Origin: an uncultured Christensenella sp. | GTDB taxonomy: Bacteria; Bacillota; Clostridia; Christensenellales; UBA1242 | Direction: 5' to 3' | Length of the DNA: 57,762 nucleotides | NCBI GenBank assembly: GCA_910584815.1 | Contig: CAJUBT010000008.1 | Span: 1 to 57,762, forward strand | In this document: positions 39,497-57,762 of the stretch, piece by piece | Numbering within the stretch: the first letter of the stretch is position 1 | Layout of the letters: every line of letters begins with the position of its first letter | Notes under the pieces: generated by a model | Databases searched by the model: none | What the model was told of the DNA's origin: nothing | Seen by the model: only the letters and a program-made list of their open reading frames with translations | Translations under genes and position numbers: made by a program

Positions 39497-39557
39497 TTTA
39501 AATTCTCCTTTATTAATTAATTATTTAATATTTTGTAATTATTTAAAAACTTTTTAC

Positions 39558-40518: not shown

Positions 40519-40595
40519 TGGTGCACCCTAAGGAGTTCGAATCCCTAACCTTTGGTTCCGTAGACCAACGCTCTATCCAGTTGAGCTAAGGGTGC
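40519..40595 (-). tRNA. tRNA-Arg (anticodon ACG), CCA encoded
   Basis: Reverse complement folds as acceptor GCACCCT/AGGGTGC and anticodon arm TTGGT-CTACGGA-ACCAA, with T loop TTCGAAC-like and 3' CCA. Followed (leftwards) by a GCGAACC/GGTTCG hairpin plus T run. Confidence 0.88.
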
Positions 40596-41154
40596 ATAAA
40601 TAATATTTTTATCAAACTATTGGTTATTGTAATAAAAATAATATAAGAACTTAAAGTAAAGATTTATGTTTTAGTAGTATTATTAATTAAAATTTTTTAA
40701 TGTAATAAAATTTTAAAGGAAATATATCTATAAATTATTATATAGCATAAATTAAGTTATTGCAAATTTTTATTTAGTATATTAATAATTTTAATTAAAT
40801 AACAAACCATAATATAGAAATTTGTTTATAGTTATAAGTTAGGTTAATAGGGAATAATAAAAATAATTGTCTTTAAATTTACAACTAAATTTGTTATAAT
40901 ATATTTATATATCTATTATATAAAACAAAAATTAATAATTCTATTTAAACTCAACCAGTTTATTTTATCATTAAAGTTTTAATAAATCAAGTATCTTTAT
41001 TTATTTTTCTTTGTTCTAAGTTAAAATTGTTATAGGTTGCACAAAAATATATAAAAAACAATAAAAAAATTAAGTTTGCACTTGAATTATTTTATAAAAG
41101 GTGTAGAATAAATACAATTACCAGAGTTTTTTAATAAAAAGGTGGTGTATAAAT

Positions 41155-42639
41155 ATGGTAGATTTAACAACCGCAGTTATTATGGCTGGTGGCAAAGGCA
41201 CAAGGCTTGCTAGTGTAACAGGTGTGTTGCCAAAACCAATGGCTAAAATTAGAAATTTAGAACAAACTGGGCATAGTTTAGATGCAGATGATACTATTCT
41301 AGCGCATCAAATAGATTTATTGTCGCAAGAAGGCATAACAAATTTTATTCTAGTAGTGGGCAATAAAAAAGGCTTCATTCAAGATGCCTTTACAGATGAG
41401 AAAATTAATGAATTATTACCTGATAGAAACATTTCTATTAGGTACTTTGAAGAGCAAGAGCAGAACCCTTTAGGTACAGGGGGCTCTTTTTGTTCTAAAG
41501 ACCTTCAACGAATGATTGGTCAAGATGACTTTTTATTAACTTACGCTGATGTACTGTTTGATATAAATATTCAAGATATGTTTAAGTTCCATAAGCAAGA
41601 AGGTGCAGATGCAACAATGTTAGTTGGTGCTTGTAAGGAACCAGATGATAGAGTTTTGTGTTGCCTAGGTGATGATGGTAGCGAAATTACAAGGCTTATA
41701 CCTAAACAAGGGAAAGGAGAAGCTCCAAGAGGATGTGCATTTCCTAACATTGCAAGGAATGGAATTACAATTTTTAATTCAAGTTTATTTGAAACTTTAC
41801 CACAAGAATGTACTTATATGGATATGGAAACCGACATTTTAACTCCTATGGTATATAATCCTAAATACAAAGTTTGTGCTTGGAAAACTCCTTGTTATGT
41901 AAAAGACATTGGAACAGTTGACAGATACTTTGAAGGAGTTTCAGATTTACAGGAGGGTATTCCTCAAGCTAAAAATCCTGCAAAAACAGAACAGTCTTGC
42001 GTTATATTTAGAGAACAAGATTTAATTAACGATGGAAAGTTAGACATTGATTCCGCAAGGGCAATAGAAGAACTTAACGAAAAGGGTGTTATTGTTGGTT
42101 TACAATGTGTTGAAAAAGTTTTGCCAAAAGAAACAACCATAGGGGAAATGGCAATTGACACCGCTCTTAATCGTCAAGGTAAAGGCGCTTTTGTTAACTT
42201 TAAATTTGGTGAAGAAGACATTGCTCCATTAGTTAAGGCTATGGAAGAATGGAATATTTCTCAGGAAAGAACTTATGTTATAGAAAATGCCATAGGTTAT
42301 GGATATTTAGTTTCCAATTTTTCAAAAGGGGACCAATCTTTTCAATTATCTCCAATTTCTGCTACTTATCAAATTTTACAAACAATAGAAAATCAAAAAA
42401 CTCAACAAGAATTAATGCAACACGATTCGCAAGTGTTTGGAGAACTACAAACTATGTTTGGCATTTCTCAGGAAGATACTACTATGAATACAGAGGAAGT
42501 TACAGATATGCCAGTTGACATTGCAGCTATAGAAAATATTGGAAGAGAACATACTTCATACGGTGAAACAAATGCTGCACAAGATGTTAGACTTATGCAG
42601 TCTGTTCTTCAAGGACCTGTTGAAGATATGAACAAATAA
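41155..42639 (+). CDS. Sugar-phosphate nucleotidyltransferase fused to a ~240-aa C-terminal domain (possibly degenerate HAD-like)
   Basis: 494 aa with AAGGTGG RBS and N-terminal MAGGKGTRL...LPKPM motif. The C-terminal half has no catalytic motif I can recognise. Confidence 0.65.
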   Translation: MVDLTTAVIMAGGKGTRLASVTGVLPKPMAKIRNLEQTGHSLDADDTILAHQIDLLSQEGITNFILVVGNKKGFIQDAFTDEKINELLPDRNISIRYFEEQEQNPLGTGGSFCSKDLQRMIGQDDFLLTYADVLFDINIQDMFKFHKQEGADATMLVGACKEPDDRVLCCLGDDGSEITRLIPKQGKGEAPRGCAFPNIARNGITIFNSSLFETLPQECTYMDMETDILTPMVYNPKYKVCAWKTPCYVKDIGTVDRYFEGVSDLQEGIPQAKNPAKTEQSCVIFREQDLINDGKLDIDSARAIEELNEKGVIVGLQCVEKVLPKETTIGEMAIDTALNRQGKGAFVNFKFGEEDIAPLVKAMEEWNISQERTYVIENAIGYGYLVSNFSKGDQSFQLSPISATYQILQTIENQKTQQELMQHDSQVFGELQTMFGISQEDTTMNTEEVTDMPVDIAAIENIGREHTSYGETNAAQDVRLMQSVLQGPVEDMNK

Positions 42640-42757
42640 TTTTTGTTAAAAATAAAAAAAAGACAAGGCAAAACCGTTTTAAATGTCTTGTTTTTTTATT
42701 TTCTAAATTGTATAATTTTATTATTATTGTTTTATTTTAAAGGGAGAATATATACAA

Positions 42758-43645
42758 ATGATTGATATGCACATTCACACAAAAAATTCAGATGGAATTT
42801 ACAATGTTGCAGAAATTTTAGAAATGGCAGAACAAAAGAAATTAGACTATATTTCGTTTACAGACCACGATAGAGTAAGTGCTTATGAAGAATTAAAAGG
42901 TATTGCAAAAAAAGCAATTTTTTCTGGCAAAATTATTCCTGGATGTGAACTTAGGTTTGTTTACGATAAAACACAATTTGAAGTTTTGTGTTATGGTTAT
43001 GATTATGATAAATTTAGTAAATCTTATTATGTTTCAGTAGATGCCTATATAAACATTAAAAAAGGTATTTTAAAAAATTGTCTTGAAAAGGGTAAACTTC
43101 TTGGGTTTGTATATAATAAAATAGAATTTCACCCAGAAACAAAACCTGAAAAAGATTTTTATATGGAAATTATAAAACACGAAGAAAATTTGCCAATTCT
43201 TCAAAAATATGACATTAAACATTCAGGTGAATTTTTTAGAAAACTTATTGCAAATAAACAAAGCCCAATGTTTTTTGATGCCACCGATTATTCTTTGAGT
43301 TTTGATGATGCTGTGGATTTTGTTCACGAATGTGGTGGAATTGCAGTTTTAGCACATCCATTTGGCGTTTATCAAATAGAAGACCCTAAAAAACTTTTAA
43401 GCGAACTCCTAGCAAAAAATAAATTAGATGGTTTAGAATGCTGTCACGCGGATATTACTACAGAACAAAGCGAGTATCTACTTGATTTATGTAAAAAACA
43501 TAATTTAGTATCTACAGGTGGAAGCGATTTTCACGGTTATCCTGGTCAATCTTTTGCAAAGTGGAACAAAGGCTCAAAAGATATTGAAACTAAATTAATA
43601 GACAAATTCTTAGAAAAAATAGATAAAAGCAAAATAATAGATTAA
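42758..43645 (+). CDS. PHP-domain phosphoesterase
   Basis: 295 aa with AGGGAG RBS. Motifs DMHIHTKNSDG, AHP and GGSDFHG. Confidence 0.8.
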   Translation: MIDMHIHTKNSDGIYNVAEILEMAEQKKLDYISFTDHDRVSAYEELKGIAKKAIFSGKIIPGCELRFVYDKTQFEVLCYGYDYDKFSKSYYVSVDAYINIKKGILKNCLEKGKLLGFVYNKIEFHPETKPEKDFYMEIIKHEENLPILQKYDIKHSGEFFRKLIANKQSPMFFDATDYSLSFDDAVDFVHECGGIAVLAHPFGVYQIEDPKKLLSELLAKNKLDGLECCHADITTEQSEYLLDLCKKHNLVSTGGSDFHGYPGQSFAKWNKGSKDIETKLIDKFLEKIDKSKIID

Positions 43646-43986
43646 CTTATGGTACTTTTTTCTAAAATAAATTTAGTAAAAATAAGTTTATTACATTGTA
43701 ATTAAAATTACATAGAATCATTTAACAGAAATTATTAAAATGCTTTGTGGAATAGAAACTAAAAAATACTAAGAACTTATAAATATAAATAGGTTAAGGT
43801 GTTAATTCTTTAAAAAATAATTATAATTTTTTGCTTCTTTTTAATTTTTAAATTAGTTAAGATTTATGTTAATTTGATTTTTAAACTATTTGTTTATTAT
43901 AACTCAAAACTGCAATCAGTAGAGTGTGCTTGTTTCAATATGTTAGTTACTTTTAAAAAAAATAAATAATAAAGGTTTTTAAATTT

Positions 43987-44433
43987 ATGGTTAAAATTAT
44001 CGTTTTAAGTGATTCTCACGGAAATAAAAAAAATTTAGAAAGTTTACTTGAAACCTCTAACTATAATTATGTTTATTATTTGGGCGATGGTTTAAGGGAT
44101 ATAGAAAACTTTTGTGAAACCAATATTAAAAAAGTTTGTGGCAATTGTGACCATTTTTCAAACGAAGCAGTTACAAGATATGAGAAACTGGAAGGTTTTA
44201 AAATTATGTTAACTCACGGTCACGATTTTAAAAGTAAGTTTACCAAAGCATTAATGTTAGAAAATGCAAAAAATAATGCTTGCGATATTGTATGTTCAGG
44301 GCATACTCATAAACAGGGTATGGAATATATTGATGGTATTTTATTTATAAATGGTGGTGCGTTTAAAAATAATCAATATGCTGTTTTAACTCTACAGCAA
44401 AATCAATCTCCGCAGGTAGAGTTCTTTAATTAA
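43987..44433 (+). CDS. YfcE/MJ0936-family metallophosphoesterase
   Basis: 148 aa with motifs VLSDSHGN, GD, LTHGH, SGHTH. Confidence 0.8.
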   Translation: MVKIIVLSDSHGNKKNLESLLETSNYNYVYYLGDGLRDIENFCETNIKKVCGNCDHFSNEAVTRYEKLEGFKIMLTHGHDFKSKFTKALMLENAKNNACDIVCSGHTHKQGMEYIDGILFINGGAFKNNQYAVLTLQQNQSPQVEFFN

Positions 44434-44440
44434 ATTATTT

Positions 44441-44475
44441 AAAACATATAGCAAAGCCTTGTTATATGTTTTTTT
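44441..44475 (+). terminator. Rho-independent terminator
   Basis: Stem AAAACATATA/TATATGTTTT with 12-nt loop, followed by a T run. Confidence 0.55.
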
Positions 44476-44943
44476 GTTATAGAAAGTTAAACCTTTTCTT
44501 TAAGTAGCTTTTAATGTATTTTATAGTTTTTATTTGTGCATTTAAATATAAATAAAATATTAAATATCTTTTAATTAAATTTGCTTTTTCTATTATGCTT
44601 TTAACCTTTTATTATGTCGTAAATAATTTTAATTAAAAACTACTTTTAAAATTTATTATAATAGAATTACTTTAAAAATGTTTTATTATTAAAAAAATAA
44701 AAATAGTGTTGTTAAACTTAGCAACATTATTTTTTATTATAAAAATTTTAATTTGTTAATTTTACTAATAAACTATTATTCCCATAATTATTAATAAGAA
44801 TAGTTCTTATAAAGTTTACGCATAATAAGAGCAACTCCAATAACATTAAATAATAAATACGAATTTTTCTTATTTATTAAAAATAAAAATTCTAAAATTT
44901 GATAATAATGCGAAACTATATAAAATTATAATAAGGAGAGATT

Positions 44944-45288
44944 ATGAGGCTAAAGGAAATTAGAAAGCAAAAAGGTTTAAAACAAAATAAAGTAGCTCAA
45001 GATTTACAAATTAATGTTGTAACCTATAATGGCTATGAAACTGGGAAAAGCGAACCTAACATTCAAATTATATTAAAACTAGCAGATTATTTTAATGTTA
45101 CAACAGATGAACTTTTAGGGGCTCAAAGCAAACTTCCAACCCTTAGCGAAAAAAGTGCCTTACTTGGAAGAGTAAACCAGTTAACTGAAAACGAATGCCA
45201 CAAATTAAACATTTATGCTGAAGCACTTATGTTTGCAAGAGTTGAACATAAAGACAAAATAAATAAAATTATTAGAGATGAAGAATAA
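44944..45288 (+). CDS. XRE-HTH protein, DGR-adjacent paralog 1
   Basis: 114 aa with AAGGAGAG RBS. N-terminal HTH_3-like region and conserved C-terminal LTENECHKLNIYAEAL. Confidence 0.8.
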   Translation: MRLKEIRKQKGLKQNKVAQDLQINVVTYNGYETGKSEPNIQIILKLADYFNVTTDELLGAQSKLPTLSEKSALLGRVNQLTENECHKLNIYAEALMFARVEHKDKINKIIRDEE

Positions 45289-45608
45289 TGAAACTAAAAG
45301 AAATAAGAAAAAAACTTAAAATAAATCAAGATGAACTTGCAAAGGTTTTAAACACAACGCAGCATACAATTTCTAATTACGAAAACAATAAAACTCAACC
45401 AAGCATAGAAGACATTGTAACTTTAGCAAAGTTTTTAAATGTAACAGCAGATGAGTTGCTTGGAATGAATGTAAATAACGAAAATTTAATTGAAAGAAAC
45501 TTGCTATTCAAAACAATTAATGGCTTAACCGAAAGTGAATGCCATAAGTTAAATATATATGCAGAGGCATTAATAACTGAAAGAGAAATATATAAAGATA
45601 AAATTTAA
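45288..45608 (+). CDS. XRE-HTH protein, DGR-adjacent paralog 2
   Basis: 106 aa. The start overlaps the previous stop (TAATG). Same two-part architecture (LTESECHKLNIYAEAL). Confidence 0.8.
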   Translation: MKLKEIRKKLKINQDELAKVLNTTQHTISNYENNKTQPSIEDIVTLAKFLNVTADELLGMNVNNENLIERNLLFKTINGLTESECHKLNIYAEALITEREIYKDKI

Positions 45609-45630
45609 AAGAAACTAAAGAAGAGATAAA

Positions 45631-45993
45631 ATGAATTTAAAAGAAATACGAAAAAGAAATAAAAAGAATCAGAAAGAAGTTGCAGATTTTTTAAATGTTA
45701 TGCAATCTACCTATAGCGGATATGAAGTTGGTAGGGTGGAAATGACGGGGGAAACAATTATAAAATTATCTAACTATTTTAACGTTACAACCGATGAACT
45801 TTTAGGGGTAAAGAGAGAAGAAAAAACATTAACTCAAAAAAATACCCTTATGAATAAAATTAACAATTTAACAGAAAATGAATGTTATAAATTAAATGTC
45901 TATGCAGATGCTTTAATTATAAACAGAGAAGAACATAAGCAAAAAATTAACAAACTATTAACGGAAGAAAATGAAAAATTAACAAATTTTTAA
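45631..45993 (+). CDS. XRE-HTH protein, DGR-adjacent paralog 3
   Basis: 120 aa with the same architecture (LTENECYKLNVYADAL). Confidence 0.8.
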   Translation: MNLKEIRKRNKKNQKEVADFLNVMQSTYSGYEVGRVEMTGETIIKLSNYFNVTTDELLGVKREEKTLTQKNTLMNKINNLTENECYKLNVYADALIINREEHKQKINKLLTEENEKLTNF

Positions 45994-46063
45994 GCAATTT
46001 TAAAAATTAAATTTTAACCTATAAAAAATTTATAAAATAAATAAACTTGATAAAACCTAAAAT

Positions 46064-46101
46064 AACCCAAAATTTCTAAACAATTTCTGGGTTGTTTTTT
46101 T
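46064..46101 (+). terminator. Terminator-like hairpin between HTH triplet and RT
   Basis: AACCCA...TGGGTT imperfect stem followed by T7 (46095-46101). Confidence 0.45.
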
Positions 46102-46167
46102 ATTTAATTAAACAAAATTTAAATATTAAATTGGAATATAATCAATAAAGTTGTATATTAAAAATAT

Positions 46168-47316
46168 ATGATAGAAAACCGTTTCAACGAAGTTTTTAGT
46201 TTTGAAAATTTATATAAAGCCCACCTAAAAGCAAGGCTTTCTAAAAGAGATAAAAAAAGCATTGTAAAATACGAAATGGAATTAATTAGTAATTTGTATG
46301 ACCTATATAAAAAAATTCAAAATGGAACTTATAATATAGGTGTTTATAGCAAATTTATTGTTTACGAACCCAAAAAAAGACAAATTCAAACTTTGAATTA
46401 TTACGACCGAATTGTTCAGCACGTTTTATGTGATAATTTACTTATGCCTTATTTTACAAAGCGTGCTGTTTTAGATAATTGTGTTTGCCAAGTTGGGAAA
46501 GGCACTCACTTTGCCCACGACCGATTAAAAGCAAATTTGCATAAATTAATTAAAAAAAATTCTAATGACATTTGGTGCTTAAAGTGCGACATAAAAAAAT
46601 ATTTTCCAAGTTTGCCCCATAAAAATTTAGTTGAAACTTTTTGCAAGCATATTAGAGATGTTAACTTAAAAAATATGGTGGCGCAGATTATTGATAGTTT
46701 TCATACCAGTGAGGTTTTTCTTAAAAAACATAACATTTCACCACTTGGTTTAACAAAAACAGAAAGGGGGATTCCTATTGGCAACCAAACCAGCCAAGTT
46801 TTTGGAATGTTTTACTTAAATAGTTTAGACCGTTTAGTTAAGGAAAAATTAAGGATAAAAGTTTACAGCAGATATATGGACGATTTTTTGTTGTTTAGTG
46901 AAAGTAAAGAAAAATTAACATATGCTTTTAAACATATTAAGGAACATATTAAAAATATAGGTTTACAATTAAATTCTAAAACTCAAATGTTTCCGTTAAA
47001 AAATGGATTTAATTATTTGGGTTTTAATTATTCAGTTACCAAAACTGGTAAAATTTTAAAAACAATAACAACAAAAACTCGTAGAAGAATGAAATGGAGA
47101 GTTAGATACCTTAAAAAACTATATGAAGCAAAGCTAATTAATTCTGAACGGGTTGAAAGGTCGTTAGTTGCTTTTCACGGCCATTTGTGCCACGCAAAAT
47201 GTTGGTACTTAGAAAACAAACTGAGAAATGGGCTAAAACCAATGTTGCCGAAAGAAGTTTTTGAACGAGCAATAAAAAGTAAGAAAAAGAAAACTAAAGC
47301 AGTTATGTTAAAATAA
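46168..47316 (+). CDS. DGR reverse transcriptase
   Basis: 382 aa. Has the DGR-diagnostic motif 4 IPIGNQTSQVFGMFYLN (SQ rather than SP) and catalytic YMDDF. Also FENLYKAH...KRDKK, YEPKKRQI and DRIVQHVL. There is no SD. A promoter-like TTGGAA-17-TATATT ends 8 nt before the ATG. Confidence 0.9.
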   Translation: MIENRFNEVFSFENLYKAHLKARLSKRDKKSIVKYEMELISNLYDLYKKIQNGTYNIGVYSKFIVYEPKKRQIQTLNYYDRIVQHVLCDNLLMPYFTKRAVLDNCVCQVGKGTHFAHDRLKANLHKLIKKNSNDIWCLKCDIKKYFPSLPHKNLVETFCKHIRDVNLKNMVAQIIDSFHTSEVFLKKHNISPLGLTKTERGIPIGNQTSQVFGMFYLNSLDRLVKEKLRIKVYSRYMDDFLLFSESKEKLTYAFKHIKEHIKNIGLQLNSKTQMFPLKNGFNYLGFNYSVTKTGKILKTITTKTRRRMKWRVRYLKKLYEAKLINSERVERSLVAFHGHLCHAKCWYLENKLRNGLKPMLPKEVFERAIKSKKKKTKAVMLK

Positions 47317-47393
47317 AATATTAAAAAAATATTAAGTAAGAGAAGAATAAAAAAGCCAAGCATAATTATAAAAAGGGAAATGAATAGGTGACA

Positions 47394-47473
47394 ATGTGCT
47401 GTTAAATTTTAAACTATTAAAATTTAATGCAAAATTAAAATTTTGCCTAAAACCTTTGGTTTTAGCAGCACAT
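47394..47473 (+). other. Structured RT-avd intergenic element
   Basis: A 13-bp closing helix ATGTGCTGTTAAA/TTTAGCAGCACAT has one U-G wobble that is valid only on the + strand. It encloses the hairpin GCAAAAT-TAAA-ATTTTGC. Confidence 0.35.
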
Positions 47474-47522
47474 AACTGCCAACAACTAACCACTAATTAC
47501 ATAAGATAAGGAGAATAAATAA

Positions 47523-47921
47523 ATGGATGAAAATAGGGTTGCAAGAACATTAATATCTCACGATAAAAGCAAAGATATGGCTGTGTTCACCCACGCCAAA
47601 AAATTAAGCGAATATATTTTTGTTATAACCGAAAAATCTCCTAAAAAATTAAGATGGAGTATTATAACAAGAATGCAAAACATATCGGTTGAAATTATAG
47701 AAAACCTATACCGTGCAAACTTAGAAAGGGGAGAACTTAGGGTAGAATATCAAAAGCGTGCCTATGTTAATGTGCAATTGCTAGACTATTATGCCTCTAC
47801 CGCAAAAACAATGCAAGCAATAAACAATCACCAAATGTTAGTGCTTGGCAAGAGCTTGCTAGATGTTAAAAAATTGTTACTAGGTTGGGTTAAAGCAACT
47901 AAAAATAACCTTTCAACCTAG
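47523..47921 (+). CDS. avd: Avd-like accessory variability determinant (four-helix-bundle, 23S rRNA IVS protein family)
   Basis: 132 aa with AAGGAGA RBS, basic and helical. The pattern F.HAKKLSEYIFVITEK.PKK.R.SI..RMQN.S.EI.EN..RAN is typical of Avd. Lies adjacent to the RT. Confidence 0.8.
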   Translation: MDENRVARTLISHDKSKDMAVFTHAKKLSEYIFVITEKSPKKLRWSIITRMQNISVEIIENLYRANLERGELRVEYQKRAYVNVQLLDYYASTAKTMQAINNHQMLVLGKSLLDVKKLLLGWVKATKNNLST

Positions 47922-48168
47922 TTGAGAACTTAATATATAATATATTATATATAATAACTATATAATAATATATCCTATTTATATAAACCTATTTATATAA
48001 ACCTGTTAGTAATTAAGTTTGTTGGTTTATTGTTAAACTTATTTTAAAATAAATTTTTAAATAAGTTTGCTGAGTTTTGTTGTAAAAATTTTATATATAT
48101 GTTTGCTTGTTTTTTTTTTAAGATAGTTAAATTAACTTATTGCTTTTTTTTTAAAAAATTTTAAATAT

Positions 48169-48201
48169 TGTGCTATAAACTTAAATAGCACAAATTTTTT
48201 A
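48169..48201 (+). terminator. Terminator after avd
   Basis: 9-bp stem TTGTGCTAT/ATAGCACAA with 8-nt loop, then ATTTTTT. Confidence 0.55.
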
Positions 48202-48251
48202 TGTGCCAAAAAAACAAAACAAACCTACAAAACAATGTTTTGTTAAAATTA

Positions 48252-48475
48252 CCTTAAAGCCTCACCGCACCGCCGAAACTTAAAAAAACAAAATTTTATT
48301 TTTTTAGGCTTTTTGCTTGCTAATGCCTCAAAACAAAATTTAAAATTTTTGCGTTGTGACAAGATGAGGCCACATTCACCCTCGCCATATTCTGTTGGCA
48401 ATTAGGTAGGATAGAAACCCCTTCACCACAAATCAATATCGGCTTAACTGTTATAAATAGTTAAGAACAGGAATT
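48252..48475 (-). ncRNA. Structured RNA island 1 (3' of TR-1 in the TR sense)
   Basis: GC-enriched block in an AT-rich spacer. Conserved core AGGTAGGATAGAAACCCCTTCACCACAAATCAATATCGGCTTAAC. Helices GCCTCA(48259)/TGAGGC(48365) and CTTAACT(48443)/AGTTAAG(48459). Confidence 0.5.
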
Positions 48476-48783
48476 TAACACTTTTAACATTGTTGTTGGT
48501 TTATAAAAAAAGTTTGCTCCTATATTTTATAGTTTTAAAACCATATGTAAAGTTTTTAAATCTGTAAACTTTTTTTGCCTTTTATAAACTTAAAACCATA
48601 AAAACTTAAAATATATTTTATTTAAAAATTTAAAAGTTTGTTTTTATAAACATACTTTTTTTAAAATATTCAAATTTTAAAATTTTTATAATGCTTTTAA
48701 ATTTAAAACTTTTAAAGACTTGTTAAAAAATAAAAAGCAAATTAGGAACCATATTTTTTTAAACCTTAACAAATAAAAAGGCG

Positions 48784-48904
48784 GTGAAGCGCGGGACGAA
48801 CGGCGTTAGAATTGTGAACGTTGTTATTACTCCAATCAGCGCCAGAAGGGTTGAGTATATACGCATTGTTAGCATTATTGTTGTTGCCAGACCGCAACCA
48901 CGAA
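48784..48904 (-). repeat. DGR template repeat TR-1 (intact, no cognate VR in window)
   Basis: 121 nt with the same 18-nt and 22-nt end blocks as the VR. 12 in-frame AAY codons and no stop. Differs from TR-2 at 17 internal positions. Confidence 0.75.
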
Positions 48905-49338
48905 AGAAAGAGAAAAAGGCCCCGACCTAATTACAAGGTTTTTACCCCTTAATATAAAACTATCATAAAACTTTAAATTATGTAAAACATAATAGTTTTA
49001 TTTTTTTTGATTATAAAATAAATTTTTAAAATTTGTTTTGAATTGTTCAGCTTTTTTAGTTTTTTATTGTTTTTTTAAAAAAATGCTTTTACAAAAAAAC
49101 TAATTAAAAACAAATGCAAAACAATTTAAAAAACTTAGCCTTAGCATTATATAAAACTTTTTTTAAATTTTTTTATTTATAAAAAACACAAAATTTAAAA
49201 TAAAAAAAGGTTTAATTAACAATTTAAAGCATTTTTTAAATGCACATAAAAGGTTTAGCAAAAAAAAATTAAAAGCCTTTAACCTTTATGCTTTTTTATT
49301 TTTAAATTTGCTTAAAGTTTTAAAAAAACTGAATAAAA

Positions 49339-49565
49339 AAAGCCCTACCGCACCACCACCTTAGTTACTAAAAAAAATTATTAATTTTTTTAGTAAGGGC
49401 TTTTGCTCACACCCCAAAACAAAATTAACTTTTGTGTTGGAGTAAGGTAAGGCAATATTCACCCACGCCACATTTATTTTTTGTTGGCAAGCAGGTAGGA
49501 CAAAAATCCCTTCACCACAAATCAACTTCGGCTTAACTGGTGTTAATAGTTAAGAACAGGAAAAA
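49339..49565 (-). ncRNA. Structured RNA island 2 (3' of TR-2 in the TR sense)
   Basis: Same core as island 1. Helix GCCCTACC(49342)/GGTAAGGC(49446) is C:A on the + strand but U:G on the - strand. Hairpins at 49414-49440 and 49532-49554. On the - strand the last helix is followed by U7. Confidence 0.55.
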
Positions 49566-49743
49566 CCCTTTTAATGCACCATTTAAAAATAAACTAGGTT
49601 TTTTTTAGGCTTTAAAACTTAAAAGTTTTGTTAAGTTTTTAACCGCTAGCACAAGCACTTAAACTTGTTTAAAAATTTTTGCAATAAAAAACTTAAAACA
49701 AAAAAAGTTAGTTGCCATAAAATAAACCTACACATTAAAAGGT

Positions 49744-49864
49744 GGTGAAGCGCGGGACGAACGGCGTTAGTATTGTTGACATTATTATTACCGTTACTAG
49801 CGCCAGAAGAATTGAGATTGTAAGCATTGTTAGCATTATTGTTGTTGCCAGACCGCAACCACGA
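49744..49864 (-). repeat. DGR template repeat TR-2 (cognate of VR 53016-53136)
   Basis: Its reverse complement aligns gap-free with the VR. 18 mismatches, 17 of them at TR adenines. 15 in-frame AAY codons. Confidence 0.9.
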
Positions 49865-50283
49865 AAGAAAGAGAAAAAAGACTCCAGCCCAAAATACAGA
49901 TTTCTGCCCCTTATTAAAACTTTATCACAAAACTTTAACCTTTAGCAAATGTTAAACCTTAAGTTTTAACTGTTTAATAAAAGCTTTTAAAAATAATCTT
50001 CGTTTAAATTTGCAAAAGTTTGGTTTTTTATACCTTAGCTTTTAAATTAAAAAACTGTGTTCAAAAAATGTAATTTAAAAAAGGGTTTAAGGTTTTAAAA
50101 AAACAAACCCCAACTTAAAACAAATAAAAACTATTTTTTTAAAACAACAACATAAGTTTGTAATTTTTTTAAAAACAACTTTTAAATTGTAAATTTTGGT
50201 TAAAACATTTTTTAAAAAATATAATAAAAAGTGTTTTTTATAACTTAAAAATTTTTTGGCATTTTTTAAGCTTTAAATAAAAA

Positions 50284-50552
50284 AAAGCCCTACCACAAAA
50301 AAGGCTTTAAAAAAAAATTTTAAGATTTTTTTGTAAATAACTTAAAACAAAAAAATAATTTTGCGTTAAGTTAAGGTAGGGCAACCTTCACCCTTCTTTT
50401 AATTTAAAAATTGTTTTTTAAAAAACCTTTTTTTTAAATTTTGCTTTTTATTAAAACAAACCAAATTAAAAGTGGCGGGTAGGATAAAAACCCCTTCACC
50501 ACAAAATCTAATCGGCTTAACAAACATTTTTTATGTTTTGTTAAGAGCAGGA
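50284..50552 (-). ncRNA. Structured RNA island 3 (divergent, with ~90-nt AT-rich insertion)
   Basis: Perfect helix GCCCTACC(50287)/GGTAGGGC(50375), extended 12-bp CTTAAC.../...GTTAAG hairpin (50516-50545), and conserved GGTAGGATAAAAACCCCTTCACCAC. Confidence 0.45.
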
Positions 50553-50831
50553 AAATAACTGCCTTTTAAAATTTTACTAAATTGTGGCTTGCGGCAAATT
50601 TTTTAAACTTGCTTTGTTTTTTAATTAATAAAATTAAAAATTAATTGTTTTAAATTCCATTTTAAAACTGGAGTTTTGTGGCAACTAACTTTTTTTGTTA
50701 AGCCCTTTTAATTGCTTTAAAATGCAAATTTGTTAAGGCTAAAACCTTAGTTAAAACAACACAACTTGTCAACTAAATTTTTTTTAAAAAAAACAAGCCT
50801 GTAAAAAAAGCAAACCTAAACTTTAAAAGGT

Positions 50832-50950
50832 GGTGAAGCGCGGGACGAACGGCGCTAAACGCACTGCAGCAAAACACCCTAAGAAAGTGCGCCAGAAGAA
50901 AAACAAAAAGCGTGGCGGGAAGCCTACTAGCAGCCAGACCGCAACCACGA
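50832..50950 (-). repeat. Degenerate TR/VR-like copy 3 (adenine-poor, indels, in-frame stops)
   Basis: 119 nt. Both end blocks are identical to TR-1, TR-2 and the VR. The central 79 nt have only 7 sense-strand adenines, several TAG codons and a length difference of -2. Confidence 0.7.
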
Positions 50951-51938
50951 AAGAGAAAAGGAGAGAAAAAAGCCCGAAACTTAATTTATGATTTTTACCC
51001 TTAACTTTAACTTACCACACCTTAAAAACCTTAAACAATTTAAAGGCAATAAAATGTTTAAGATATTTACAACTTAAATAAATTTAAACTTTTTTATTAA
51101 AAACTCAACTGTTTTAATTTTTTTAAAAAACAAATTTAAATGCTATTTTTAAAAAATAATTTTAAACCAAATTTTAAAAACAAAAAATTTTAACTTTAAT
51201 TTGCTTTAAAAACAAAAATTAAATTTTAATGCTAAAAAATAAAAGTTAAACTTAAACAAAGTTCCTTTAAGCAATTCTAGATATTTTTTAATTAAATGCT
51301 AAAAATTAAAATCTCCTATTTTTTGCTTTTTAATTTAATAAGTTATAAAGTTTATAAACCTATTTTTAATGCTTTTATAACAATTTAAAAATTTGCCTTT
51401 GTTTTGTTTAAAAACTAAATTTTGTTAAAGGTGCAAAAAACTTTTTTTGCAAACTTAGGCTATAATTTATTATTTTAAAATATTTATAAAATAAATAAAA
51501 TAAGCCCAAAAAGGCAAAAAATGTTGGTAAATATTAAAAAAACTATCTATTTTTGTTGTAATTTTGCTTTAATTTATTTATAATTAACAATGTAAAATAT
51601 CCAAAATTTGCCAATTTTAAACTTTGTTGCTTATAAAGGGTTTTTTTAAATTTTAAAACAATTAAAATTAAAACTTTTAATTTAAAAATTTAATTTTATT
51701 TTAAAAAGCAATTTAAAAGTTTTTAAACTTAGTTCTTTTTAAATTAATTTTAAAATTTTTTGTTAAAGTTTAATTCCTTACTTTTAGTTTAGTTTTAATT
51801 GCTTGTTTAAGAAAGTTGCTTTTGCTGCAACAAGTTTAACAGTTTTTAGTTTAGTGCTAACTAACTAAACCCATAAATTTTACAAATTTAATAAATGATA
51901 GGATAAATTTTTTATAAAAAACTAAGGAAGGATTTAAT

Positions 51939-54900
51939 ATGAAAAAGTTATTTTTGAGTATAAGCACTTTTTTTGTTTTTACGCTTTTAACATTAAGCGT
52001 TTTTTTTGTTGACTTTAAACCAGATATGGCTAAAGCCTTTAATTCCGAAAACACTACCACCGCAGTTAAGGTAGATGAAATTTGGAACGACACCGCAAAA
52101 AAATTTGATGATGATAACCTAACAAAACTTTTGCAGTTTGTTACAGGCAGCAACACTGTTAGAACAAACAACCTAAGCACCGTTAAAACACAGGCAACCA
52201 ACAAAAAAACAGCCAGTGCAATTAGGGGCACAGCAGTAACTGCCAGCACCGATGGTGCAGTTAAAACTGCAAGTAAAGATATTATTGTAACATTAGGCGG
52301 GTTAGACTGGACCCCTGTATATTTAAGTAACGATACCTCCTCAAACCCAATTTTAACCTTATGGCTAGCAAACTCTAGCCAACTTAATGGCAAAAAATAC
52401 TACACAAGTAACACAGCATCTTCTTCCTTTGGTTCAAGTGGCTCAGCAATGTGGAATAGTGGTTTTACCCCTTGGACAACAAGTGCAGATGGGAATACTT
52501 ACTATTATAACGATTCTGCAACTCCTGCTTCATCCTATCCAGACAATATGTATGGTATGAGTGCAATAAGAAGCACCGTTTTAAACAATGGAGGTTCTTA
52601 TTCAACTGCACATATGGGTAAAAGCACCGCTACTATGAGTAAAAAGAGCGATAGTGTTTTTAGCAAATTCACAGTAACCACTTCAAATTCCACTGCCATT
52701 GCAGACTATTTAACTGTGCCAACAAATGTTTCTTGGCAAAAAAGTGGGCAAAATTTATCAAAAACTTGGTTTAGTTACCAAGCACCAAGTGAAGATTTGC
52801 AAACTGGCGTAAACACCTCTACTGCAGGTTATTATACAACAACATCTTATGTTTCTAATGGGCAAACTGCAAGTATGAATTATACAAGTAGAAGCAATTA
52901 CACTCAATGGAGTAACGATCGTTTATGGCTTCCTTCAGTTACAGAGACGGGCTACGATGACACACATATAGGCATTTGGAGCACTACAACTGAACAAAGG
53001 TCGAACACGCAGTGGTCGTGGTTGCGGTCTGGCTACTACTATCCTGCTAGCAGTGCTTACCATCTCCTTTCTTCTGGCGCTAGGTACGGTTTTAATATTG
53101 TCAGCAGTACTTACGCCGTTCGTCCCGCGCTTCACCTTAATCTAAACTCGGCTGCGGCGAACACAATTAGTGCTATAGACATTAACACTTGCGTGGTTTC
53201 AAACTTAAGCAATAGTCAATGGAACCCAGTAAGCAACCCAATTCCAACCTTCACACTTAAAACCCCAGATGGTAAAACAACATTAACTAAAGATACCGAC
53301 TATACTGTAACTTCTTCTTCAACCAGTGCACCTGGCACTATAACTTTAACAATCAAGGGGAAGAGCAGTAAATATGAAGGCACAAAAACTGTAACCTATC
53401 AACTTGAAAAAAGAAGCATAACCCGTGCGTTGAGAGACAACACCTTGAGTGTTGCCAACCAAACTTGGACGGGTGAAAACCTCACGCCCGCGTTAAGCGG
53501 GCTGAAAGACTACGCCTATAATGCCGACACTGGTGGCAGCAAACTTAGCACAACAGGCGTAGCCTTAACCCAAAACACACACTACACCCTTAGTTACACA
53601 AACAACAAAAACATAGGCACTGCAACCATAACAATAACTGGGGCAGGCAACTACACTGGTTCAACAAGTGTTAACTTTAACATTGTTGCTGTGGATATGA
53701 GTTTAATTACGGTAGATGCCGTTGAAGATAGAATTTGGAACCCAGTAAGTAACCCAATTCCAGAAATTGTGGCAAGATACACAGGTGCAAACAAAACCTT
53801 AACCACCGCCGACTATACTGTTACAAGCTCTGCAAAAACCGATGGCACTGCTGTGCCTGGCGAGGTTACTTTAACCATAACAGGTAAAGGCAACTACACT
53901 GGCACAAAAACTGTTAAATATATGTTAAACCGCCGAGACATTGGCTTGGCATTAATGGGTAACACCCTTACTGTTGCCAACCAAACTTGGACAGGAGAAC
54001 GAATTGAACCTGTTTTAACAGGCTTAAAAGACTATGGTTACCAAACCTTAACAAGCCAAACTCCGCTAAGCCCAACAGGCGTTCCTTTAACCTACAACAC
54101 TCATTATGTGTTAAACTATACTAATAACATAGACCTTGGCACTGCAACTGTAACAATAACAGGCAATGGGGTTTACTACACTGGCACAACCTCAACTGCC
54201 TTTACCATTGTTGCGCGCAGCATTGCCGATGGCACATTAAGTTTAAACCAAACTAATTTAGACTATAATTTTGGTGAAGATTTACTTCCAAGCCTTGTTG
54301 CAACCTTAGAGGTTAACAACAAAACTTTAACCACAAGAGATTACGACCTTTCTTACTATTCTCCAACAGGCAGTGCTGTTACAAAAATAACCGATGCAGG
54401 CACCTACAAAGTTAGGGCAACAGGCAAAGGCAATTATACAAGTGCAAAGGAAATTAATTTTGTTGTAAGCAAACTTGCATTGCGTGAAGAATTTTTTACA
54501 ATTAGCCCAAGCAGTTACGAATATAAAAATTCTCAAATAATTCCTACCTATACTGCAAGCTACACCTACACTGCTGGCAAAACCTATAATTTTAGACCTA
54601 CCGATTTTTCTGTAACCTATGGTGAAAATGTTAACGCTTCAACAGGCGGAACAGTAACTTTTACAGGTGCAGGCAGTAATTTTGAAGGCACTGTAATTAA
54701 AAAATTTACAATCACAGCAAAAAGCATTAGTGCAGGCGACATTACAAAACCAACAATTCCAAGCCAAACCTACACAGGCAGTGCAATAACTCCAAGTTTT
54801 ACATTAACCGATGCAACTCTTGGGCGTGCCTTAGTTAAGGATGCCGACTACACTGTAACCTTTACAAACAATGTTAATGTTGGCGAAAGCAGTGCTGTTG

Positions 54901-57762
54901 TTAAAGTTACAGGCATAGGCAACTATGCTGGCGAAACTGCATTAAGTTTTGAAATTACTCCAAGAAGCATTACTCTTGTTAATATTGCCGAAATTCCAGA
55001 CCAATCTTTTACAGGGTTAGAAATTACACCTGTGCTTAACATAACCGATAATGGTGCAAGTTTAATTAAAGATACTCACTACACTGTAACCTTTGCAAAC
55101 AACATAACAGTTACAAACAGTTCCATTAAAGCAAGTGCAACTCTTGTTGGGGTTGGTAACTACGAAGGCACAACAGTTGTTTATTTTAACATTATTCCTG
55201 TTAACATTAGTGGGGCAATATTTAGCCTTGGCAGAACTTTAATTACTGGTTTTAACTACGAGGAAGATTTTTTAAGTGAAATTCAAGAAAATGCAACTTT
55301 AAAAATTAACACAACCGTTTTACAAAAAAATGTAGACTATAAAATTAGTGCCTTGAATGCCGACAAATCTGCCGAAATTGGCAACATTGTTAACATTGGC
55401 AAATACATTATTCGTGCAACTGGTTTAGGTAACTTTATTGGCACAAACGAAATTGAATTTGAAGTTACAAAAAGAGATATTTCTCAAGATGACATTGAAA
55501 TTGAATTAGACAGCAAAAACAACGATTTTACATATAATGGTGAAAGCCACGAAGCAACAATTAAAGTTTTTGGTAACTACACAATTAAAGGCGTGCAAAA
55601 ACGCAGCGAACTTGTTGAAAACCGCGATTATACAGTTAGTTACGATGAAAACACAAACGCTTCAACCTCTGCCCGTGTGTTAATAACTGGTATTGGCAAC
55701 TTTACAAGCGTTAAAACTAAAAACTTTACAATTAAAGCAAAAATGCTAGATGGGTTAGACATTGTTTTGGAAAATGATATTCCTAACCAAGATTATACTG
55801 GCACAACTCTTTCTCCAACCTTTGTAATTAAAGATAATACTCTTAACCTAGTTTTAGCACAAGGCACTCATTATAGTGCTACTTATACAAACAACACCAA
55901 TGCTGGAGAGGCAACTATAACGCTTACAGGTATTGGCAACTATGGCGGAACAAAGGTTTTACACTTTAACATTTTACCAAGAGATATTTCTCTTGCAACA
56001 ATTTTAGAAATTCCAGACCAAGTTTACACATCTTCTAACATAGAACCTGTTTTAACAGTAACCGATAATGGCAGAAATTTGGTTAGAGGGGTAGACTATT
56101 TAGCAACCTTTAAAAACAACATAAATGTTGGGCCTGCAGGCAGTGCTCAAATAACCATTAATGGTATTAATAACTATCAAGGCAAAAAGGATGCTGTGTT
56201 CACAATTCTCCCTGCCGACCTTGCCGATGCCAGATTGGAACTTTCTCCTGCAAGCAGTGTTTACACTGGCAAAAGTGCAGTTACTTCCATAAGGGTTATT
56301 ATGAACGAAAACAACGCTGTTGTGGCAGACAAGAACTACCAAATAACCTATTTAAAGGGCAGTCAGGTTTTAAGTGGCATAGAGGACCTTGTTGATGTTG
56401 GAACTTACACAATAAGAATTTCAGGTCAATCTAACTACGAAGGCACCATTCAAGAAAATTTTGTTATCACTCCTTGCAATATGCAAGATGTTTCTGTGTT
56501 GCTTTCAAGTTCAAGTTTTGTGTATAACCAAAGTTCACAAACCCCAGTTGTAACCTTAAGTTACAATGGTTTAACATTAACAAGTGGCACAGACTATATT
56601 TTAACCTATCGCCAAACAAATGAAAGTGGGGCTACAGTTACTCATCCAACAGATGTTGGCACATATGCAATTATTTTAGAAGGTAAAGGTAACTATCAAA
56701 AAACCAATTCAAGTTTAAGTTTTGAAATTACTCCTGCAAGTTTAAACAAAGGTGCAGTTGCAACATTCTCTTCTGACCCAGCAACCGCAAACATAACCTT
56801 TGATAACAGCACTCACAAAATAATTCTTTCTAGCCTTAAAATTAATAATGTAGAATTCTTCAGTGGTTTTGAGGGCGAATATGCAACCGTTTCTTACCTA
56901 AGAGAAAACGAAGAAACCACAAACTTTATCAATGCAGGAACAATAACAATTAAAATTTCTGCAGTAGAAGGTAACAGTAATGTAATTGGCGAAAAAACTT
57001 ATACCTACGAAATTAAGCGTAAAAATTTAGCAACTGCAGACAGCAATAAGCAACTTTTAATTACAGGTATAGAAAACAAAGTTTACAACAGAAATGCACA
57101 CACTCAAAATGTTGTTATCAACGATACCGTTGCAGATTATGCTTTAACAAGTAACGATTTTTCAGTAACCTATTCAACCAGCTGTATTAATGCCGAAGAA
57201 GACATTGTAATTTACATAAATTCAAATGCTTCTGGTAACTATAGCGGAACAATAACAAGAACCTTTAACATTGAAAAAGCAATTGTAAACAATTTTGTTC
57301 TTTTATCTACTGGTGCAGTTTATTCTGCAAGGCCACAAGTTATAGAAGTAGAAGTTAGGGCAGGCAACATTGAACTTACACCTAGTGAATATAAGTTAGA
57401 ATATAAAAGAAACAATATTGTAACAGAAGACATTACTAACATTGGCGATATTTCTGTTGGGCTTATAATTGTAAGCACAAACTTTAAAATTGAAACTCCA
57501 ATTGCAAGTCAGAATTACACAATTTCTAAAATTACAATAGATAGTGTTACTCTTACAAACAATAATGTTGGCTATAATGGTGAAACTTATGTTATAGATA
57601 TTTCTAGCGTTGTTGGTGAAGGCGGAGTTGTTTTAAAAACAACCGATTATATTGTTTCCTACACCGATAAAGATAACAACGCATTAACAAATAACGAAGT
57701 TGTTAAGGCAGGGGTATACACAGTAAAAGTAACAGGTGTAGGCAATGCACAAGGTAGCAAAA
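51939..57762 (+). CDS. DGR target: giant surface protein (partial, >1941 aa) with N-terminal variable ligand-binding domain and tandem Ig-like repeats
   Basis: ATG at 51939 with AAGGAAGG RBS and signal/TM MKKLFLSISTFFVFTLLTLSVFF. The frame is open to the window end, which is why it is missing from the ORF track. The VR encodes SWLRSG...AVRPALHL at aa 360-400. After that come repeats of type ..YTG..I.P......G..L..DTDYTVTY.NN.N.GTATV.ITG.GNY.GT....F.I. Confidence 0.85.
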   Translation, partial: MKKLFLSISTFFVFTLLTLSVFFVDFKPDMAKAFNSENTTTAVKVDEIWNDTAKKFDDDNLTKLLQFVTGSNTVRTNNLSTVKTQATNKKTASAIRGTAVTASTDGAVKTASKDIIVTLGGLDWTPVYLSNDTSSNPILTLWLANSSQLNGKKYYTSNTASSSFGSSGSAMWNSGFTPWTTSADGNTYYYNDSATPASSYPDNMYGMSAIRSTVLNNGGSYSTAHMGKSTATMSKKSDSVFSKFTVTTSNSTAIADYLTVPTNVSWQKSGQNLSKTWFSYQAPSEDLQTGVNTSTAGYYTTTSYVSNGQTASMNYTSRSNYTQWSNDRLWLPSVTETGYDDTHIGIWSTTTEQRSNTQWSWLRSGYYYPASSAYHLLSSGARYGFNIVSSTYAVRPALHLNLNSAAANTISAIDINTCVVSNLSNSQWNPVSNPIPTFTLKTPDGKTTLTKDTDYTVTSSSTSAPGTITLTIKGKSSKYEGTKTVTYQLEKRSITRALRDNTLSVANQTWTGENLTPALSGLKDYAYNADTGGSKLSTTGVALTQNTHYTLSYTNNKNIGTATITITGAGNYTGSTSVNFNIVAVDMSLITVDAVEDRIWNPVSNPIPEIVARYTGANKTLTTADYTVTSSAKTDGTAVPGEVTLTITGKGNYTGTKTVKYMLNRRDIGLALMGNTLTVANQTWTGERIEPVLTGLKDYGYQTLTSQTPLSPTGVPLTYNTHYVLNYTNNIDLGTATVTITGNGVYYTGTTSTAFTIVARSIADGTLSLNQTNLDYNFGEDLLPSLVATLEVNNKTLTTRDYDLSYYSPTGSAVTKITDAGTYKVRATGKGNYTSAKEINFVVSKLALREEFFTISPSSYEYKNSQIIPTYTASYTYTAGKTYNFRPTDFSVTYGENVNASTGGTVTFTGAGSNFEGTVIKKFTITAKSISAGDITKPTIPSQTYTGSAITPSFTLTDATLGRALVKDADYTVTFTNNVNVGESSAVVKVTGIGNYAGETALSFEITPRSITLVNIAEIPDQSFTGLEITPVLNITDNGASLIKDTHYTVTFANNITVTNSSIKASATLVGVGNYEGTTVVYFNIIPVNISGAIFSLGRTLITGFNYEEDFLSEIQENATLKINTTVLQKNVDYKISALNADKSAEIGNIVNIGKYIIRATGLGNFIGTNEIEFEVTKRDISQDDIEIELDSKNNDFTYNGESHEATIKVFGNYTIKGVQKRSELVENRDYTVSYDENTNASTSARVLITGIGNFTSVKTKNFTIKAKMLDGLDIVLENDIPNQDYTGTTLSPTFVIKDNTLNLVLAQGTHYSATYTNNTNAGEATITLTGIGNYGGTKVLHFNILPRDISLATILEIPDQVYTSSNIEPVLTVTDNGRNLVRGVDYLATFKNNINVGPAGSAQITINGINNYQGKKDAVFTILPADLADARLELSPASSVYTGKSAVTSIRVIMNENNAVVADKNYQITYLKGSQVLSGIEDLVDVGTYTIRISGQSNYEGTIQENFVITPCNMQDVSVLLSSSSFVYNQSSQTPVVTLSYNGLTLTSGTDYILTYRQTNESGATVTHPTDVGTYAIILEGKGNYQKTNSSLSFEITPASLNKGAVATFSSDPATANITFDNSTHKIILSSLKINNVEFFSGFEGEYATVSYLRENEETTNFINAGTITIKISAVEGNSNVIGEKTYTYEIKRKNLATADSNKQLLITGIENKVYNRNAHTQNVVINDTVADYALTSNDFSVTYSTSCINAEEDIVIYINSNASGNYSGTITRTFNIEKAIVNNFVLLSTGAVYSARPQVIEVEVRAGNIELTPSEYKLEYKRNNIVTEDITNIGDISVGLIIVSTNFKIETPIASQNYTISKITIDSVTLTNNNVGYNGETYVIDISSVVGEGGVVLKTTDYIVSYTDKDNNALTNNEVVKAGVYTVKVTGVGNAQGSK
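53016..53136 (+). repeat. DGR variable repeat (VR)
   Basis: In frame with the target CDS. Identical to the TRs at 18 nt on the 5' side and 22 nt on the 3' side. Internal differences from TR-2 are almost exclusively at template adenines. Confidence 0.9.
53166..54224 (+). repeat. Internal tandem duplication of a two-domain (~175-180 aa) unit in the target gene
   Basis: Units 53166-53705 and 53706-54224 share DNA-level blocks (e.g. GGAACCCAGTAAG.AACCCAATTCCA; GTTGCCAACCAAACTTGGAC) and colinear protein sequence. Confidence 0.6.

Follow-up and report, generated by a model that had tools for sequence, protein, structure and literature searches.

The usual description of a diversity-generating retroelement (DGR), on which detection software also relies, is of a single reverse transcriptase (RT) with one template repeat (TR) close by and in the same orientation. 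How, then, is a locus to be read in which three TR-like copies lie on the strand opposite to the RT? The question is raised by a 57,762-nucleotide stretch of DNA from an uncultured Christensenella sp. (GenBank assembly GCA_910584815.1, contig CAJUBT010000008.1, positions 1 to 57,762), referred to below as the window. In it, genes for an RT and an Avd-like protein are followed by three inverted copies of a segment of a giant target gene, the variable region (VR). We conclude that the locus is a genuine chromosomal (cellular) DGR, apparently active, and consider it probable that its RT and Avd act on three inverted RNA units, two of whose templates, TR1 and TR2, alternate on the one VR. The principal components are:

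46168-47316, plus strand: DGR reverse transcriptase, 382 residues (Pfam RVT_1, 2e-20)
47523-47921, plus strand: Avd accessory protein, 132 residues (Pfam bAvd, 7.9e-10, 39.6 bits against a cut-off of 40)
48783-48903, minus strand: TR1, 73% identical to the VR
49744-49864, minus strand: TR2, 85% identical to the VR
50832-50950, minus strand: TR3, matching the VR at its ends only
51939-57762, plus strand: target gene, cut by the end of the window (no stop codon, more than 1941 codons)
53016-53136, plus strand: VR, codons 360-400 of the target

The DGR identity of the element follows from the affinity of the RT, the presence of Avd and the adenine-directed differences between TR and VR. The RT, which has more than 3600 homologues, finds its best PDB match in the Bordetella enzyme bRT (8ub7_A, E=3.4e-35; the runner-up is a group II maturase, 3.2e-9), and its motif IGNQTSQ aligns to IGSLTSQ of bRT and agrees with the DGR-clade pattern [I/L]GxxxSQ. 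Assignment to the group II, retron or Drt enzymes was rejected on the NCBIfam scores (94 against a cut-off of 300 for group II, 47 against 235 for retrons, and likewise far under the cut-offs of the Drt models), and Rfam found no match to intron RNA domains or msr/msd RNA in 47800-52000. The scores of the Avd candidate are borderline, at or under the cut-offs for both bAvd and NCBIfam DivGenRetAVD (1.6e-10, under its cut-off); the conspecific copies likewise carry the bAvd mark in Pfam, and all five relatives with listed open reading frames (ORFs) have an ORF of 153-175 residues at the same place after the RT, so that position and length fit Avd. Both genes thus bear out an earlier note on this DNA, made from the sequence alone, which had called them a DGR-type RT and an Avd-like helical protein; a check against the ORF list of the window found all ORFs at the positions given there.

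The VR ends in a GC-rich boundary, GCCGTTCGTCCCGCGCTTCACC, common to TR1, TR2 and TR3. Its end motifs (18 nt at the 5' side, 22 nt at the 3' side) have exactly four matches each in 57.8 kb, as compared to about none in shuffled sequences, and as both are limited to these four sites the window holds no second VR for TR1 or TR3. The three reverse-complement copies seen in the earlier note are therefore real, the first of them at 48783-48903 and not at 48784-48904, and their template sense is that of the minus strand, as was claimed there; read in this direction TR2 encodes SWLRSGNNNNANNAYNLN..., and a profile built solely from relatives finds the modules around the TRs on the minus strand. The copies are not equivalent, as the earlier note had taken them to be, and its description of them as AAY-rich holds for TR1 and TR2, TR3 being depleted of adenines and interrupted by stops. 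Only TR2 corresponds to the VR of the window, with 18 mismatches, 17 of which fall on TR2 adenines. TR1 is a different, intact template with the full set of AAY codons and an open frame (encoding SWLRSGNNNNANNAYILNPSGADWSNNNVHNSNAVRPALH); it shares its ends with TR2 and differs from it at 17 interior positions, 8 of which are non-adenine in both. Since the window VR has 14 non-adenine mismatches to TR1, it was not written from TR1. The ends that both repeats share with the VR, together with the 17 interior differences, suggest that TR1 and TR2 are alternative templates for a single VR.

Conspecific contigs, recovered via the exact Avd sequence, show that this alternation has left its trace in the species. 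Contig L081 (GCA_948523695.1, 17.8 kb) corresponds to window positions 38633-56461 with 99.77% identity and runs from the upstream genes through three helix-turn-helix (HTH) genes, the RT, avd and the three inverted modules that carry the TRs into the target. It has 44 aligned differences from the window, 34 of which are concentrated in 53037-53109, i.e. in the VR, leaving 10 in the ~17.7 kb outside it. The L081 VR has 21 mismatches to TR1, 20 of them at adenines, and 12 non-adenine mismatches to TR2; at the 8 diagnostic non-adenine positions L081 is TR1-like in all 8, and the window TR2-like in all 8. One and the same gene, with matching flanks and array, thus has a VR derived from TR1 in L081 and from TR2 in the window. 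The VRs of two further contigs, L079 and L080, are also of TR1 type and unlike each other, with all mismatches at adenines (17/17 and 16/16), which indicates that the VR is being rewritten. Altogether, the four conspecific VRs all differ and depart from their cognate TRs almost only at adenine positions, the TRs remaining constant (TR1, TR2 and TR3 are each identical in the window, L081 and L082). A scan of JGI metagenomes for TR/VR-type sequences returned zero matches. In both TR/VR pairs the one change away from adenines is a T-to-G substitution within AGT-A, at 53084 in the window (VR position 69) and at VR position 75 in L081; it is thus present in both a TR2-derived and a TR1-derived VR.

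The same contigs bring up a rival explanation, in which there is one TR per target: TR2 would write the window gene and TR1 a paralogue elsewhere, so that the TR1-type VR in the window-type gene of L081 would reflect a chimeric assembly or gene conversion between paralogues. L079 and L080 do carry a second version of the target N-terminal domain, the same in both, whose divergence from window positions 52423-53022 is patchy (37-98% identity in stretches of 60 nt) and whose flanks are ~100% identical, and in these two assemblies it is joined to a TR1-type VR; besides, L079 is a contig of 1976 nt, as an assembly bubble would give, and a multi-target DGR with two TRs is known from Stenotrophomonas SKA14 (PMC6642488). 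L081 is nevertheless hard to account for in this way: its differences in the VR area are confined to the TR-homologous 53037-53109, where the other allele differs, over the 60 nt that precede the VR and at the first site past it, its bases are those of the window, and ahead of the variable interior the two alleles have only ~18-21 nt in common, less than an assembly join would normally need. Furthermore, the L081 VR is identical to neither that of L079 nor that of L080, and its gene directly adjoins the same TR array. We regard a dedicated target for each template as unlikely.

An inverted block of repeats also invites the suspicion of an assembly artefact or a mis-oriented scaffold piece, the more so as many short-read contigs of the species, several of them from Logan, break off in or close to the TR1 module (L001, L083-L085); repeats would cause such breaks. 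The block is present, however, in four other assemblies of the species; it is reproduced not only in L081, which is continuous through all three modules into the target, but also in L082 (GCA_949915885.1, 99.95% identical through TR3), L086 (GCA_948942035.1, 99.9% through TR1) and the ENA contigs L087 and L088, which are ~98% identical and have two modules only (TR1 and TR3). In all of these, including three metagenome-assembled genomes (MAGs) from NCBI (L081, L082 and L086), avd runs into the modules in the same orientation, and inverted modules occur in other species too (L045, L063). An artefact, which the earlier note had named as a possible refutation, is thereby effectively ruled out, and the inverted multi-TR layout is kept among conspecifics.

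We fetched 76 genome loci from MAGs of gut Clostridia, Christensenellales, Borkfalkiaceae and Anaeroplasmataceae; an adenine-biased repeat pair is detectable in ~33 of the 76, in which the usual order is RT, avd, TR and target with VR, on one strand. The conserved element directly 3' of the TR consists in these relatives of a short hairpin, the sequence TTTCC(A/C)GTAT and a hairpin that we call P2, followed by GAG(N)TGAAG, the partner of the TR tail CTTCACTC, then by a strand that pairs with a sequence 20-45 nt upstream of the TR, more hairpins, and finally a long stem ending in a U tract. In the window the three modules, 0.9-3 kb from avd and on the strand opposite to the RT, align well beyond the TR, and every one of these RNA elements is present in each of them in the minus-strand sense:

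48252-48964, minus strand: module 1, around TR1; -10-like site 48959-48964; 5' strand 48937-48950; TR tail 48780-48789; AT-rich insert 48490-48780; P2 hairpin 48439-48470; primer strand 48421-48429; 3' strand 48408-48421; terminal stem 48252-48271
49335-49926, minus strand: module 2, around TR2; -10-like site 49921-49926; 5' strand 49899-49912; TR tail 49741-49750; AT-rich insert 49560-49740; P2 hairpin 49528-49559; primer strand 49510-49518; 3' strand 49497-49510; terminator 49335-49354
50279-51016, minus strand: module 3, around the degenerate TR3; 5' strand 50990-51002; AT-rich insert 50550-50830; P2 hairpin 50512-50550; primer strand 50494-50502; 3' strand 50481-50494; terminator 50279-50298

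Each module is thus predicted to be a complete DGR RNA, comprising a TR-bracketing duplex, the TR, a primer-pairing tail and a terminator. The profile of relatives finds all three modules on the minus strand (in module 2 at 49572-49443, E=3.7e-6) and otherwise matches only the VR end in the window. The duplex between tail and primer strand was found in 28 of 28 modules examined, in four versions that change on both strands (CTTCACTC/GAG.TGAAG, CTTCACCAC/GTGGTGAAG, TTTCACCTAA/TTAGGTGAA and CTCCAC/GTGGAG). A formal pair count in alignment A4 showed no two-sided changes in this helix, one version being dominant and the variants bulge-shifted, so the co-variation rests on the table of duplexes from the 28 modules. 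The TR-bracketing duplex has 12-16 bp and is more stable in cognate than in non-cognate combinations (-18.1 vs -12.9 kcal/mol, 38 modules); G-U pairs are numerous in it when read in the TR sense, and on the opposite strand these would be A-C. P2 shows clear compensatory changes. The stem-loop after the TR is short in the window modules (4-5 bp) and may play a part similar to that of its counterpart in known DGR RNAs; with it, the template-primer duplex and the flanking duplex, the same set of RNA elements is found in all three modules and in relatives. RNAalifold, run on a MAFFT alignment, returned only P2 and a small local hairpin, the latter of which we discarded as it clashes with the better-supported long-range duplex. 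The AT-rich inserts between the post-TR hairpin and P2 (147-275 nt) are absent from relatives and account for a tail-to-primer spacing of 235-363 nt, against 72-98 nt in relatives; in the minimum free energy fold of module 2 (z = -2.6) the tail still meets the primer strand and the insert forms a hairpin domain of its own. A weak sigma-70-like site precedes each module (GATAGT, GATAAA and GGTAAG), poorer than in relatives, where a clear TGnTAYAAT lies ~10 nt ahead of the AAGGG strand. The template sense and the RNA structure point to transcription from the minus strand.

The modules could instead be decaying duplicates, with one functional cassette and the remaining copies, TR1 included, as leftovers without a role. 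TR3 is clearly degenerate, the number of modules depends on the strain (L087 and L088 have TR1 and TR3 only), and the inserts are not conserved between modules, all of which would suit this explanation. It is at odds with the complete AAY codon set and open frame of TR1, with the retention in every module of a separate primer strand and of a separate, compensated duplex around the TR, and with the TR1-type VRs in three assemblies, each with a different outcome at the adenine sites. We therefore hold simple decay to be quite improbable as an account of the array, and retain the view that TR1 and TR2 both serve as templates.

For TR3 itself a different history can be proposed. This copy of 119 nt has 8 adenines, as compared to 31 in TR1 and 34 in TR2, three indels and an in-frame TAG TAG, for which reasons it does not count as AAY-rich, and its clean match is limited to the 18-nt 5' end and the 22-nt 3' end. 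Relative to TR2 it keeps 7 of the 34 adenine positions and 73 of the 87 others, with untouched ends. Judging from this pattern, the interior of TR3 may have been replaced by adenine-mutagenised cDNA and subsequently acquired indels. In the two-module lineage, TR3 of L087 (~4082-3960) has G for A at two positions as compared to that of the window, and an additional G in its GC-rich end.

Arrays of this kind are not confined to the window; in the RT clade they are common, with 2 to ~11 tandem copies. At least two TR-like copies besides the VR are present in ~20 of the 52 loci with any match to the TR/VR 3'-end pattern, up to 12 pattern matches in L025, the last of which is probably its VR. Between avd and target, arrays were found in L006, L016, L017, L022, L025, L027, L033, L060, L063 and L065, either as full modules with a period of ~345-420 nt (L006, L027, L065, L022) or as units of 5' strand and TR with a period of ~160-200 nt, in which one downstream element follows the whole series (L017, L033, L060). 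Many of the copies are adenine-poor. The VR can be traced to the 5th of 6 cassettes in L033 (16/16 differences at adenines), to the 3rd of 4 in L065 (13/13) and, among those compared, to the last in L060 (12/13). The VR of L027 (15600-15722) is chimeric, its 5' and 3' parts matching different cassettes (those that end at 12172 and 12860), which suggests template switching or successive partial homing. Clean parallels to TR3 exist as well, in the form of adenine-mutagenised copies of neighbouring TRs: in L017, 14 of the 16 differences between the copy that ends at 12833 and the adjacent TR, with its end at 12628, are at adenines, and so are 14 of the 19 differences between the L027 copies 12517 and 12172. 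Inverted modules occur once in L045, between avd and target, and three times in L063, after the RT.

Compared to the DGR of Bordetella phage BPP-1 (mtd-avd-TR-brt), the window element has the closest solved RT in common, as well as Avd, the adenine-specific mismatches and the GC-rich 3' boundary of TR and VR; the RNA logic is also alike, with tail-primer pairing, a TR-bracketing duplex and a stem-loop after the TR. In the Bordetella ribonucleoprotein a template-primer duplex joins TR 117-129 with Sp 47-56, and a stop duplex is made of the TR-flanking sequences; both were predicted in 207 of 278 Avd-type DGRs by Handa et al. (10.1101/2023.10.23.563531). The duplexes of the window and its relatives match these two. 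The differences lie in the arrangement: BPP-1 is phage-borne and the window element chromosomal, with the order RT, avd, TR modules, target; in place of a single co-stranded TR beside the RT, the window has template RNAs on the opposite strand in three separate units, two of them with usable templates. The VR of BPP-1 is C-terminal, that of the window occupies residues 360-400 of a protein of more than 1900 residues; the tail-to-primer distance is enlarged by the inserts, and the inverted repeat after the VR is absent, none having been found there. The layout is thus unusual, as the earlier note had it, with regard to BPP-1; within the RT clade the order RT-avd-TR-target is normal, and inversion recurs in L045 and L063. 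To that clade of gut Clostridia and Christensenellales (L003-L077, from GTDB genomes), with RTs 48-58% identical to that of the window, the element is also tied by a signal-peptide target with the VR ~350-450 residues in, by the same downstream RNA elements and by frequent arrays. In most members the modules share the strand of the RT, and the downstream element comes 72-98 nt past the TR; the window modules are inverted, measure ~1 kb each, contain large inserts, and stand in a far more AT-rich genome.

That TR and RT can sit on different strands has already been published: it is stated by Wu et al. (2018), who list 48 architectures (PMC5758913). For Stenotrophomonas sp. SKA14, Yan et al. reported a DGR in which two TRs go with six VRs, spread over different ORFs (PMC6642488). 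Both precedents resemble the window in having more than one TR per RT or split strands; in SKA14 two TRs serve six VRs in different ORFs, whereas in the window two TRs with the same ends serve one VR and a third is adenine-depleted. In the literature searched, outside of which lay most subscription journals, we found no tandem TR arrays, alternate TRs acting on one VR or adenine-mutagenised TR copies. The value of the present locus is in its trans-acting inverted cassettes and two templates per VR; the observation made in the earlier note is partly confirmed and its interpretation partly supported, its description being largely right and the layout a trait of the clade, with the use of two templates as the more interesting feature. 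A functional analogy is offered by the silent pilS cassettes and pilE of Neisseria, where a donor array rewrites one segment of an expressed surface protein; the route is RecA-dependent gene conversion there, and RNA with error-prone reverse transcription here.

The protein that would be diversified begins with a signal peptide and an N-terminal domain of ~400 residues, at the end of which lies the VR (SWLRSG...AVRPALHLNL), followed by Ig-like repeats. A full-length relative, P0185, has 3446 residues and ends in a C-terminal transmembrane helix and a low-complexity tail, and homologues of the target often match DUF6273. An AlphaFold2 model of residues 30-425 has a pLDDT of 86.8, and a sequence profile of the domain gave no significant match in the PDB.

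The surroundings of these genes contain further features:

44944-45288, 45288-45608 and 45631-45993, plus strand: three tandem XRE-type HTH genes (Pfam HTH_3, E 1e-13 to 3e-17)
46059-46105, plus strand: terminator-like hairpin and U tract between the third HTH gene and the RT (inverted repeat 46059-46075/46082-46098, then a T run)
48168-48200, plus strand: intrinsic-terminator-like site after avd, with hairpin and U tract at 48168-48193 (terminator scan)

The two terminators postulated in the earlier note, one between the HTH genes and the RT and one after avd, thus have counterparts. The hairpin at 46059-46105 would by its structure act as a terminator, and the site at 48168-48200 ends the RT-avd unit, converging on the end of module 1. 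The HTH trio adjoins the DGR and is kept in the conspecific contigs; it is missing upstream of the RT in all five relatives with listed ORFs. The paralogues have a common C-terminal motif, LTE.EC.KLN.YA.AL, and the third varies in length among conspecific contigs (120, 116, 93 or 88 residues). A correspondence of one HTH gene per module was considered and dismissed, since the lineage with the 116-residue third protein has three HTH genes (L083, L084, L089) but two modules (L087, L088).

The gene content of the window includes glycogen-metabolism genes, methyltransferases, other large surface proteins and two tRNAs, and no phage genes; the glycogen-metabolism and surface-protein neighbours indicate, as the earlier note had suggested, a cellular element. 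Two neighbouring giant surface-protein genes at 2616-13369 (plus strand; 1576 and 2008 residues) have CarboxypepD_reg and MBG repeats, and no VR-like sequence was found in either. An ORF of 364 residues with a Zeta-toxin domain lies at 30626-31720 (minus strand) amid housekeeping genes. Rfam at the gathering threshold reported only the two tRNAs in the whole window and, at an E-value threshold in 47800-52000, only a sub-threshold PreQ1-riboswitch-like match at 51898-51931 (plus strand; 19.3 bits against a gathering score of 39, E=1.5), which overlaps the ribosome-binding site of the target gene. Its 16-nt tail UAUAAAAAACUAAGGA fits the family consensus; the 5' part is short and has ATACGA rather than ATAGGA in L079. 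We consider this match probably due to chance.

Taken together, the data can be accommodated in the following scheme. A plus-strand operon would provide RT and Avd, and three tandem minus-strand units between avd and the target would each give rise to a self-contained DGR RNA, in which a 5' strand and a 3' strand downstream of the TR pair and bracket the template. The TR tail, CTTCACC(A/G)C, would pair with the downstream primer strand GTGGTGAAG for cis-primed cDNA synthesis, as in Bordetella; RT and Avd, acting in trans, would copy the TR, inserting random nucleotides wherever it has an adenine; the resulting cDNA would take the place of the VR (53016-53136), which belongs to the N-terminal domain of a giant surface protein anchored in the membrane. 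The VR of the window would have been written last from TR2, that of a near-identical strain from TR1. TR3, its interior overwritten by adenine-mutagenised cDNA or decayed, is probably an unproductive template.

Several observations weigh against this scheme. Four VRs are available from the species, and the window-type gene with a TR1-type VR is represented by L081 only, a short-read MAG contig; given the diverged allele or paralogue of the N-terminal domain in L079 and L080, TR1 could serve a target of its own elsewhere in the genome. In the comparison of the initiation-of-mutagenic-homing sites (IMH at the VR vs IMH* at the TR), TR and VR do not differ up to the end of ...GCGCTTCACC, after which they diverge; Wu et al. 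note such cases. With 3' ends identical for 29 nt, TR1 and TR2 have no evident protection from overwriting. The promoter scan yielded weak calls without enrichment over shuffles in this AT-rich DNA. Finally, Foldseek found no PDB match of the target domain at E<=0.001, the weak ones (E 2.8-9) being the Lcl C-terminal domain, snake-venom lectins, langerin and EgtB, so that a C-type lectin fold is undemonstrated.

More tentatively, we would suggest that tandem TR arrays are a working library of cassettes, among which RT and Avd choose and which are themselves overwritten to adenine-depleted copies; this seems to us possible, if somewhat less probable than not. If true, each cassette of the window would use its own downstream element, and the terminal element of relatives may serve any upstream TR. 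A switch of template would alter positions beyond the reach of adenine mutagenesis, and partial or sequential events would lead to chimeric VRs such as that of L027. Frozen, TR3-like copies could reinstall a fixed sequence or, through their stops, switch the surface protein off.

For the family, the locus implies that a template RNA can come from a gene of its own on the other strand and act in trans, and that a VR written from more than one template gains variation at scaffold positions in addition to that from adenine mutagenesis. Adenine-mutagenised TR copies in arrays suggest that TRs are not always shielded from homing. The multiplexed, trans-supplied DGR RNAs now built by engineers in E. 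coli have natural counterparts in the cassettes of promoter, TR, primer and terminator and, with arrays in ~20 of 52 loci, multi-template DGRs may be common in gut Clostridia and under-reported.

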